Below, in pieces: positions 31,101-31,764 of a stretch of 64,000 bases of DNA. The notes beneath the pieces were generated by a model. It searched no databases, was not told the DNA's origin, and was given only the letters and a program-made list of their open reading frames with translations. The first letter of the stretch is position 1, and each line of letters begins with the position of its first letter. Origin of the DNA: Clostridia bacterium (lineage in GTDB: Bacteria; Bacillota; Clostridia; Oscillospirales; Acutalibacteraceae); assembly GCA_017428625.1 (NCBI GenBank), contig JAFRQM010000025.1, positions 12,988 through 76,987 of the forward strand. The letters are read 5' to 3'. The translations under genes and the position numbers were made by a program.

Positions 31101-31129
31101 TTGACAAACACAATATTTTGTGGTAGATT
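31101..31129 (+). promoter_or_regulatory. Near-consensus sigma-A promoter of microprotein 1
   Basis: TTGACA-17 bp-TAGATT with TG extension. Confidence 0.75.
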
Positions 31130-31176
31130 AGTTAAGACAATTGATATAATTGTAAATTTTTAGGAGGAACAAATTT

Positions 31177-31338
31177 ATGGAACTTTCATTCAATTCTCTC
31201 ATCGTTCTTATTGACCACTTAACCGGCTTTTTCCAGATGATAGGCGCTCATCTTGATGATTTCAATTTTGCAGACCCCGCCGGACTTATTGCTCAGATAG
31301 GAGATTTCCTGCAGAAAGCACTTTCTTTCCCCGTATAA
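31177..31338 (+). CDS. 53-aa amphipathic microprotein 1 (not in ORF track)
   Basis: AGGAGG RBS; MELSFNSLIVLIDHLTGFFQMIGAHLDDFNFADPAGLIAQIGDFLQKALSFPV; own promoter and terminator. Confidence 0.8.
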   Translation: MELSFNSLIVLIDHLTGFFQMIGAHLDDFNFADPAGLIAQIGDFLQKALSFPV

Positions 31339-31352
31339 GCATTTAATGACAG

Positions 31353-31381
31353 CGCCCTCCGTATGAGCGGAGGGCGTTTTT
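31353..31381 (+). terminator. Intrinsic terminator of microprotein 1
   Basis: CGCCCTCCG-6 nt-CGGAGGGCG-TTTTT. Confidence 0.8.
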
Positions 31382-31464
31382 CTTTGCAAAAGTTTACCGA
31401 CATTACACTTTTTGTATAATTTGTAATGATTTATTAAATTTTTCTTAAAGAAATACCCTGATAT

Positions 31465-31493
31465 TTGACATAATAACATTGAAGATGTAAAAT
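31465..31493 (+). promoter_or_regulatory. Near-consensus sigma-A promoter of microprotein 2
   Basis: TTGACA-17 bp-TAAAAT with TG extension. Confidence 0.78.
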
Positions 31494-31537
31494 TAAAATG
31501 CAAATAAAATTGCAAATAAATTATGGAGGAACTAATA

Positions 31538-31714
31538 ATGGATATCAGTGCAATCGTAAACCAGGCATTGGAATTTGCTAAGAACCTTACAGGTTTTCTC
31601 GGTGAGTTTGAGGCTGCAGGCATTATCGACCAGGTTAAGAACTTCCTTGCAGGCATCGATCTTTCAGCCATCACAAACCTTCTCAGCAGCATTACCGGTA
31701 TTTTTGGTGCTTAA
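31538..31714 (+). CDS. 58-aa amphipathic microprotein 2
   Basis: GGAGG RBS; MDISAIVNQALEFAKNLTGFLGEFEAAGIIDQVKNFLAGIDLSAITNLLSSITGIFGA; own promoter and terminator. Confidence 0.82.
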   Translation: MDISAIVNQALEFAKNLTGFLGEFEAAGIIDQVKNFLAGIDLSAITNLLSSITGIFGA

Positions 31715-31738
31715 TTAACATTATATAAATACCCAACG

Positions 31739-31764
31739 AAACGCTCCGCTTTTGCGGAGCGTTT
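31739..31764 (+). terminator. Intrinsic terminator of microprotein 2
   Basis: AAACGCTCCGC-TTTT-GCGGAGCGTTT. Confidence 0.75.

Follow-up and report, generated by a model that had tools for sequence, protein, structure and literature searches.

A small-protein gene family of ruminant-gut Clostridia compared with phenol-soluble modulins

Phenol-soluble modulins (PSMs) are amphipathic helical peptides that are made with formylmethionine and, lacking a signal peptide, leave the cell by way of ATP-binding cassette (ABC) transporters dedicated to them (PMC4992726). They are encoded in the core genome and are 20–25 (alpha) or 43–45 (beta) amino acids (aa) long (PMC4992726). Here, we compare PSMs and other peptide classes with two small open reading frames, ORF1 (53 aa) and ORF2 (58 aa), which lie on the plus strand of an AT-rich intergenic stretch (31013–31843) within 64,000 nucleotides of a Clostridia bacterium contig (JAFRQM010000025.1; this whole stretch is referred to as the window). 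Comparison with related genomes shows that both are genuine protein-coding genes, and on the same evidence ORF2 belongs to a small-protein family of ruminant/gut Clostridia that is vertically inherited, core-genome-like, and not described before. By analogy, PSMs appear to be the known kind of peptide that the ORF2 family most resembles, and we give a probability of about 0.4 to the reading that ORF2 is a leaderless, self-associating, membrane- or interface-active, PSM-like exported peptide. The genes and the family are solid; the functional reading rests on analogy. In the literature library searched, nothing was found on the core motif of the family or on PSM-like peptides or such a family in Clostridia or the rumen.

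Comparison with known peptide classes

ORF1 (MELSFNSLIVLIDHLTGFFQMIGAHLDDFNFADPAGLIAQIGDFLQKALSFPV, net charge −5) and ORF2 (MDISAIVNQALEFAKNLTGFLGEFEAAGIIDQVKNFLAGIDLSAITNLLSSITGIFGA, net charge −4) are both amphipathic helical proteins according to structural models and conserved periodicity. The AlphaFold2 model of ORF2, built on a 41-sequence alignment, has helices at residues 3–20, 24–39, and 42–57, with a predicted local distance difference test (pLDDT) score of 85.5 and a predicted template modelling (pTM) score of 0.58. The ORF1 model, from a shallow alignment, is a helical hairpin with helices at 2–27 and 34–49 (pLDDT 78.6). These are models of monomers, and oligomeric or lipid-bound states could differ. 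Both N-termini start with M-D/E and have no hydrophobic or cationic signal; no signal peptide is present and the maximum 19-residue hydropathy (1.3–1.4) is below the transmembrane level. An initial annotation, made from the DNA letters without database searches, had described the peptides as net acidic with a 3–4 residue hydrophobic periodicity and no signal peptide or transmembrane stretch, and these values agree with it. Across the ORF2 family, the mean net charge is −3.9 (only 2 of the 68 sequences are positive), Cys and Trp hardly occur, the grand average of hydropathy (GRAVY) is 0.5–1.3, which is comparable to PSMbeta, and no 19-residue window is clearly transmembrane. Positions that are large-hydrophobic in ≥80% of members follow a 3–4 residue rhythm on all three helices.

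Like PSMs, ORF1 and ORF2 are leaderless and have no Cys, which is rare in the family. They share with PSMalpha of Staphylococcus an amphipathic helical character, a start of the type M-[D/E]-[F/I], and an origin in chromosomal core genes with strong expression signals. They differ from PSMalpha in having several helices in 53–58 aa instead of a single helix of 20–25 aa, in being strongly anionic where alpha PSMs are cationic or neutral, and in their host, which is an anaerobic rumen Clostridia bacterium with no agr or Pmt context found. PSMbeta peptides (PF05480) are of a similar size class (43–45 versus 53–58 aa), are likewise net negative, and also have an amphipathic fold of several helices and a C-terminus of the G-x-[IL]-F-G type; GRAVY and hydrophobic moment are close as well. 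The PSM sequences in this comparison served for physico-chemical values only. No profile or sequence similarity to PSMbeta was detected, the conserved LGEFEAAGI motif has no PSMbeta counterpart, and the taxon is different. The lengths of ORF1, ORF2, and the family (36–80 aa) fall outside both PSM length classes, although the helices are amphipathic. The homologues come from ruminant/gut Clostridia, not from Staphylococcus, and their promoters are of the plain sigma-A type; no search was aimed at sites of the AgrA type.

Leaderless class IId bacteriocins (aureocin A53, lacticin Q, enterocin L50) are also ~45–55 aa long, have no leader, form a helical bundle, and are sometimes encoded as adjacent pairs. 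A reading in which ORF1 and ORF2 form a two-peptide antimicrobial of this kind would account for two adjacent small leaderless helical peptides, of which ORF1 evolves fast. Known leaderless bacteriocins are compact helical bundles. They are also highly cationic and Trp-rich and are accompanied by immunity and ABC-transporter genes, whereas ORF1 and ORF2 are strongly anionic, contain no Trp or Lys-rich faces, have housekeeping neighbors with no adjacent immunity or transporter genes, and matched no NCBIfam or Pfam bacteriocin model. In most genomes ORF2 occurs without ORF1, and the distribution of the family is core-like, not patchy or mobile. We regard a bacteriocin function as very improbable. 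An SdpI-family gene at 29281–29646 was considered as an immunity gene and ruled out, as it is absent from two other recurrent neighborhoods of the family (contexts B and C, described below).

Corynebacterial PorH/PorA are another adjacent gene pair that encodes acidic, leaderless, helical proteins of ~45–57 aa. PorH is the top NCBIfam match of ORF2, but the match is insignificant (E = 0.1; 13.3 bits versus a cut-off of 30). In addition, PorH/PorA act in a mycolic-acid outer membrane, which is absent in Clostridia, and ORF2 mostly occurs without its partner. A phasin- or apolipoprotein-like nature, as proposed initially, was not borne out: neither Pfam nor NCBIfam gave such a match at E ≤ 10, and these proteins have helices of >100 aa compared to total lengths of 53–58 aa here. 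Scans of ORF1 and ORF2 against Pfam, NCBIfam, PHROGs, and PADLOC gave nothing significant; the best sub-threshold matches in these libraries were Baculo_PEP_C (E = 0.009) and the PorH match, both far below cut-offs. Searches of PDB sequences with the family profile and with the 79-aa member P0038 gave no match. Foldseek comparison of the ORF2 model with the PDB returned no structure at E ≤ 0.001, only generic helical bundles, and the non-significant top matches were designed mini-proteins, the L27 domain, and MOZART1. An acyl-carrier-protein-like reading of the segment GIDLSAIT was rejected: there is no PP-binding match, the register is wrong (D-L-S versus D-S), and the protein is too short. 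Judged by these comparisons, ORF1 and ORF2 are not phasins, apolipoproteins, class IId bacteriocins, PorH/PorA, type I toxins (see below), or phage or defence proteins.

Coding status, family, and transcription

Codon-level conservation in relatives, a check that the initial annotation had proposed, was found for both genes. Pairwise ratios of non-synonymous to synonymous substitution (dN/dS; Nei-Gojobori) are 0.02–0.2 for ORF2, which represents strong purifying selection, and 0.16–0.40 for ORF1. Between the window and the related locus L011, ORF2 has 17 synonymous and 2 non-synonymous differences. Rumen metatranscriptome contigs differ from the window mostly at ORF2 third codon positions (17 of 19 differences). 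An antisense ORF of 157 aa (31219–31692, minus strand) spans the 3' part of ORF1, the spacer, and most of ORF2. Its third-codon positions are shared with ORF2, so third-position bias alone cannot decide the strand. The antisense frame has stops in L009, L011, L012, and L015–L018, while the ORF2 sense frame, start, and stop are always kept, and the Shine-Dalgarno sites, promoters, and T-runs are all oriented to the plus strand. Because of the stops in homologues, the antisense ORF is ruled out as a real gene and is considered spurious.

The short, highly structured, terminator-flanked transcripts, the long antisense ORF, and a few promoter-like hexamers on the minus strand could also be read as signs that the ORFs are incidental to small RNAs or antisense pairs, or that the locus resembles a type I toxin-antitoxin system. 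We give hardly any weight to this reading, which is largely refuted already by amino-acid conservation down to ~35% identity with starts and stops kept, by low dN/dS, and by the broken antisense frame in homologues. No Rfam RNA family is matched anywhere in the window, there is no conserved antisense feature, and the peptides have neither the transmembrane helix (their hydropathy reaches at most 1.3–1.4) nor the cationic tail that are typical of type I toxins.

ORF2 has seven close homologues with 71–98% identity. In species-representative genomes, 15 ORF2 loci occur, all in metagenome-assembled genomes (MAGs) from the gut of cattle, sheep, goat, buffalo, and deer that are labelled Ruminococcaceae, Acutalibacteraceae, Clostridiales, or Clostridia. 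Overall, ORF2 homologues are present in more than 15 such MAGs. All of the homologues are from MAGs or metagenomes, with no known cultured host. When 1.84 billion representative proteins were searched with a profile, 29 clusters were obtained at E < 1e-3, and a second search with a broader profile gave 48 proteins. Members are all annotated as "hypothetical protein" and have no Pfam or NCBIfam model; the family is an example of small proteins that are missed systematically in MAG annotation. The members (36–80 aa) share a core that consists of a helix, the motif [FL]LGEF[EK]A[AS]GI (LGEFEAAGI), and a second helix. Long forms, including ORF2 of the window, have an additional third helix (IDLSAIT..LL..I..IFG). 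Four members (P0011, P0038, P0041, and P0043) are 79-aa tandem duplications of the core. The 181-aa member P0021 has a Sec-type signal peptide followed by 2.5 helix 2–helix 3 repeats with acidic Gly-rich linkers between them, which is a hint, by analogy, that the module may have an extracellular role.

The order of promoter, Shine-Dalgarno site, ORF, and terminator is found again at every homologous locus. Family promoters are of the TTGACA-17-TATAAT type (TA(T/A/C)AAT), with 11–12 of 12 consensus positions matched in contexts A and B. Leaders are 40–47 nucleotides (nt) long, with a GGAGG-type Shine-Dalgarno site 7–12 nt ahead of the ATG. A 5' leader stem-loop occurs at the same place in 12 of 15 family loci, with a sequence that varies by clade. 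Hairpins close to the 5' end stabilise mRNAs in Firmicutes, and the family stem-loops may do the same. Each member has a strong hairpin and T-run, that is, an intrinsic terminator, after its stop codon.

Family loci occur in at least six genomic contexts, of which three are recurrent neighborhoods and several are unique, with a single copy per locus examined and housekeeping genes around it. Context A, that of the window, is GDPD-[ORF1]-ORF2-PPDK, where GDPD is glycerophosphodiester phosphodiesterase and PPDK is pyruvate phosphate dikinase. Context B is radical SAM-MscL-GH123-ORF2, followed by His_Phos_1 or by GDPD and Gfo/Idh/MocA, and context C is metallophosphatase-radical SAM-ORF2-unknown-His_Phos_1. 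Thioredoxin, SipL, MFS_2, and Gfo/Idh/MocA genes also recur near family loci. GDPD adjoins family genes in three arrangements: divergent upstream in context A (30209–31012 in the window), convergent downstream in L017 and L020 (~6208–7218), and on both sides in L026 (6947–9661, around a 79-aa tandem variant). This repeated adjacency, together with GH123 as the immediate upstream, same-strand neighbor in context B, is what favors a lipid-handling, saposin/activator-like cofactor that would solubilise lipid-derived substrates for, or present them to, the neighboring GDPD and GH123 hydrolases. Such a role seems quite improbable, given that many members have neither GDPD nor GH123 nearby, the peptide gene comes in every case with a promoter and terminator of its own, GH123 apparently has no signal peptide (judged by eye), and Foldseek found no structural match to saposins. 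The recurrent GDPD, GH123, thioredoxin, SipL, MFS_2, and Gfo/Idh/MocA neighbors look more like relics of one ancestral neighborhood than like a functional operon.

ORF1 and ORF2 are unequal genes. Homologues of ORF1 (L009/L010/L012/L039, L011, L014/L040, L041, P0008, and P0009) occur only in the subclade nearest the window and always ~350 bp upstream of an ORF2 homologue. ORF1 is absent from L015, which shares context A, and from all more distant genomes. Identities to L011 are 98% for ORF2 and ~45% for ORF1, and to L041 they are 95% and 54%, respectively. ORF1 is a lineage-restricted add-on that evolves far faster than ORF2 at equal genomic distance. ORF2, which is widespread and highly constrained, can evidently do without ORF1 because most genomes carry ORF2 alone. 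The initial view of "twin" genes does not survive this comparison. Paralogy between the two is suggestive at most: BLASTP aligns 32 aa, with gaps, at E = 0.005, a search of six-frame ORFs with the ORF2-family hidden Markov model gives ORF1 at E = 0.33, and hhalign gives 2.9% when the profiles are small and 41% when they are larger, in which case ORF1 residues 11–47 align with ORF2 residues 6–39 across the hairpin. The profile alignment pairs ORF1 HLDDFNFADPAGLI with ORF2 FLGEF---EAAGII; in it, the two "LTGF" motifs noted initially do not fall opposite one another. Of the unannotated paralogous family that was proposed, the conserved, unannotated or "hypothetical" small genes are confirmed and the paralogy stays tentative.

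Transcription of ORF2 relatives is recorded in five bovine and sheep rumen metatranscriptomes. RNA contigs of 207–220 nt match 31515–31718 plus ~18 nt beyond at 85–95% identity, and they contain the ORF2 cassette only. In four runs compared across 19 kb (22000–41000), only PPDK and ORF2 are covered at full length in all four, and ~20 other genes have trace or zero coverage. This is qualitative evidence that, in situ, these organisms express ORF2-type genes better than many of their other genes; depth of contigs reflects expression poorly. PPDK contigs (31860–34550, runs X23–X32) reach depths of up to ~10^4–10^5 from many related taxa, and the gene evidently ranks with the most expressed ones in these rumen Clostridia. 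Many apparent "joints" in the PPDK contigs are probably chimeric or multi-taxon assemblies.

Possible functions of the ORF2 family

If ORF2 is a PSM-like exported peptide, each family gene would be a self-contained high-expression cassette, with near-consensus sigma-A promoter, hairpin leader, GGAGG, ORF, and terminator, from which a full-length, unprocessed peptide would be made in quantity. The peptide would fold into two helices in short forms or three in long forms such as ORF2, and conserved hydrophobic faces would drive its self-association and its binding to membranes or hydrophobic interfaces. An exporter whose gene lies elsewhere would carry it out of the cell without a signal peptide, and it would act as a surfactant or as a membrane-active, self-assembling peptide. 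ORF1 would be a subclade-specific, fast-diverging helical-hairpin companion with a promoter that is probably regulated. We infer high abundance, export, and membrane or interface activity from the resemblance to PSMs. This reading seems to fit best because the peptides are leaderless, Cys-free, anionic, and amphipathic, and because the family has a strong cassette, a core-like distribution, and a Sec-bearing relative.

Pfam scores lend weak independent support to the analogy. PSMalpha is the commonest sub-threshold match in the family (4 of 41 members at E ≤ 1, best E = 0.03), and two 79-aa members exceed the gathering cut-off of 23 bits by summing repeats (P0038 with 26.4 bits, P0041 with 26.7). 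The region matched is mainly helix 2, AAGIVDIVKGFLEAF (AAGI[IV][ED]I[IV]K.F[IL]). The PSM resemblance suggested initially was to the beta type; the weak support comes by way of PSMalpha, and the PSMbeta model was not matched.

Several observations weigh against a PSM-like exported peptide. ORF1 and ORF2 themselves match none of the Pfam models PSMalpha (PF17063), PSMbeta (PF05480), and PSMdelta (PF19693) at E ≤ 10, and the PSMalpha model has only 21 positions, so that its matches in the family could be just generic amphipathic helices. No ABC exporter, regulator, immunity, peptidase, or modification gene lies beside family genes in the window and ~20 related loci. Strong purifying selection, single copies, and housekeeping neighborhoods suit an intracellular core function just as well, and a heptad-like hydrophobic pattern with polar outer faces would also be expected of a soluble three-helix bundle. 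The RNA contigs are strandless and come from relatives with 85–95% identity, other than the exact strain. No indexed RNA run contains ORF1, which is to be expected because of its faster divergence and is no argument against its transcription. With regard to export, no ABC-2 or Pmt-like operon occurs in the window or next to any homologue. At a distance of 7 kb from the L026 member there is a GntR and ABC_tran pair. In Staphylococcus, pmt is unlinked to psm genes, so the lack of an exporter nearby is not decisive. Within the window, ABC genes are limited to two ATPases with Walker A and LSGGQ motifs (9894–11665) beside a gene at 9079–9894, which look like components of an energy-coupling factor (ECF)-type transporter by motif scan only.

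In the main alternative, ORF2 is a small helical-bundle protein that stays inside the cell, either in the cytoplasm or associated with the inner leaflet. Its three-helix form would then be a soluble mini-domain, the 36–40 aa hairpins would dimerise into four-helix bundles, and the protein could be a housekeeping regulator or adaptor that works via protein contacts or peripheral membrane binding, with Sda, MOZART1-like adaptors, and SpoVM-type tethers as analogues. The very strong purifying selection that acts on ORF2, its vertical inheritance in conserved housekeeping neighborhoods with one copy at each locus examined, and the lack of a nearby exporter would all be natural for such a protein, as would the a/d-type hydrophobic core pattern with polar outer positions and the confident, compact three-helix model, whose nearest (non-significant) structural neighbors are small soluble helical bundles. 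The composition, with only ~14% charged residues and GRAVY of 0.76–1.3, is nevertheless unusually hydrophobic for a soluble cytosolic protein. The same module occurs in a relative with a Sec-type signal peptide (P0021), no conserved partner gene is evident, and the weak PSMalpha profile similarity also speaks against it. We consider this alternative a serious possibility, if a somewhat unlikely one.

If the PSM-like exported peptide is real, it could shape plant-fibre biofilms, membrane vesicles, inter-bacterial competition, or host signalling in the rumen, and PSM-type biology would reach beyond staphylococci. A bolder version, which would make this family of rumen and gut Oscillospirales-like Clostridia the first PSM-type system beyond staphylococci (ancient, core-genome encoded, abundant in situ, and exported by an unrecognised transporter, with ORF1 tuning specificity) or else a saposin-like cofactor for the neighboring lipid-headgroup hydrolases, appears rather unlikely. 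If ORF2 is intracellular, the family would represent a new mini-domain that is conserved and contains an invariant LGEFEAAGI hairpin. In both cases, it is a concrete and easily synthesised target for small-protein proteomics and peptide biophysics.

Cassette structure and neighboring genes

The two genes form two monocistronic units within 31101–31770, each with a promoter, 5' hairpin, GGAGG-type Shine-Dalgarno site, small ORF, and terminator. The tandem units with promoter, ribosome-binding site, 53- or 58-aa ORF, and terminator had been recognised in the initial annotation, and all of these elements lie where it placed them. A 3-kb promoter scan found 14 promoter-like sites compared to 3.5 ± 2.1 in shuffled sequences, and the ORF1 and ORF2 promoters are the best on the plus strand. 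Recurrence of the cassette layout in homologues matters more than these scan statistics as evidence beyond chance. The expression signals of ORF2 are among the strongest in the window.

The predicted ORF2 promoter (31465–31493) matches 11 of 12 consensus positions, with TTGACA at 31465–31470, a 17-nt spacer, and TAAAAT at 31488–31493. A small, 5'-proximal stem-loop (TGCAA-ATAAAA-TTGCA, 31499–31514) is followed by a putative Shine-Dalgarno site GGAGG (31525–31529), 8 nt ahead of the ATG of ORF2 (31538–31714). An in-frame ATG at 31523, which would give the 63-aa form that some gene callers report (P0001), is not conserved (L009 has ACG there), and the start of the 58-aa form is therefore taken as the real one. 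The predicted intrinsic terminator (31739–31770) consists of a hairpin at 31739–31764, AAACGCTCCGC-TTTT-GCGGAGCGTTT, with a T-run and then TGCGTT.

For ORF1, the promoter block (31072–31135) contains TTGACA (31101–31106), a 17-nt spacer, and a TG-extended TAGATT (31124–31129; TGgTAGATT). Both promoters had been described as having TTGACA, a 17-nt spacer, and a TG-extended −10 element. This is correct in full for ORF1; ORF2 has the TTGACA and the spacing, and its TG abuts the hexamer instead of standing in the TGn register. A second TGGTATAAA element lies ~31 nt upstream (the block has two TGTGGTA elements with a spacing of 31 nt), and the promoter spacer contains the inverted repeat CACAA-TATT-TTGTG. 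The block is near-invariant across four genomes in which the flanking genes differ by 12–17% in the alignment, and it is better conserved than the ORF1 coding sequence. Its near-invariance, the TGTGGTA pair, and the spacer inverted repeat suggest a candidate regulator binding site.

The 5' untranslated region of ORF1 contains a 17-nt inverted repeat, ACAATT-GATAT-AATTGT (31137–31153), whose CAATT...AATTG arms are kept in L009, L011, and L014 with a variable loop. It may be a 5' stabilising hairpin or an operator. The Shine-Dalgarno site AGGAGG (31162–31167), 9 nt ahead of the ATG of ORF1 (31177–31338), is kept in all ORF1 loci. The predicted intrinsic terminator (31351–31386) has a 12-bp GC-rich hairpin (31351–31378) followed by TTTTTCTTT, and a counterpart hairpin and T-run occurs at all ORF1 loci.

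The left neighbor of the two units is a membrane-anchored GDPD (30209–31012, minus strand, Pfam PF03009). Its start is likely the ATG at 30979 (MTVSLFF..., with AGGAGG before it) instead of 31012. A candidate GDPD promoter, TTGAAA-17-TG-TATAAT, lies at 31041–31013 on the minus strand and, with the 30979 start, would be divergent from ORF1. The right neighbor, PPDK (31844–34546, minus strand), was named by eye from its translation alone. Between the ORF2 terminator and the PPDK stop codon, a hairpin at 31797–31826 with a 13-bp GC-rich stem and A-runs and T-runs on both flanks probably terminates PPDK and may work in both directions.

Farther upstream, the window has ~1 kb (28203–29274) that is extra relative to the syntenic L009, L011, and L014, in which the gap is ~70 bp. 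This part holds a 90-aa ORF (28257–28529, minus strand) with no Pfam match and a DUF4230 protein (28619–29224, plus strand), and by this comparison represents an insertion, specific to the strain, that separates yebC from the SdpI-family gene. At the other end of the window, ~55500–64000 is a run of minus-strand ORFs without Pfam matches that includes two small hydrophobic holin-like ORFs (59253–59835) and large ORFs at 60444–61814 and 62007–63962; it looks like the end of a prophage or a phage remnant.

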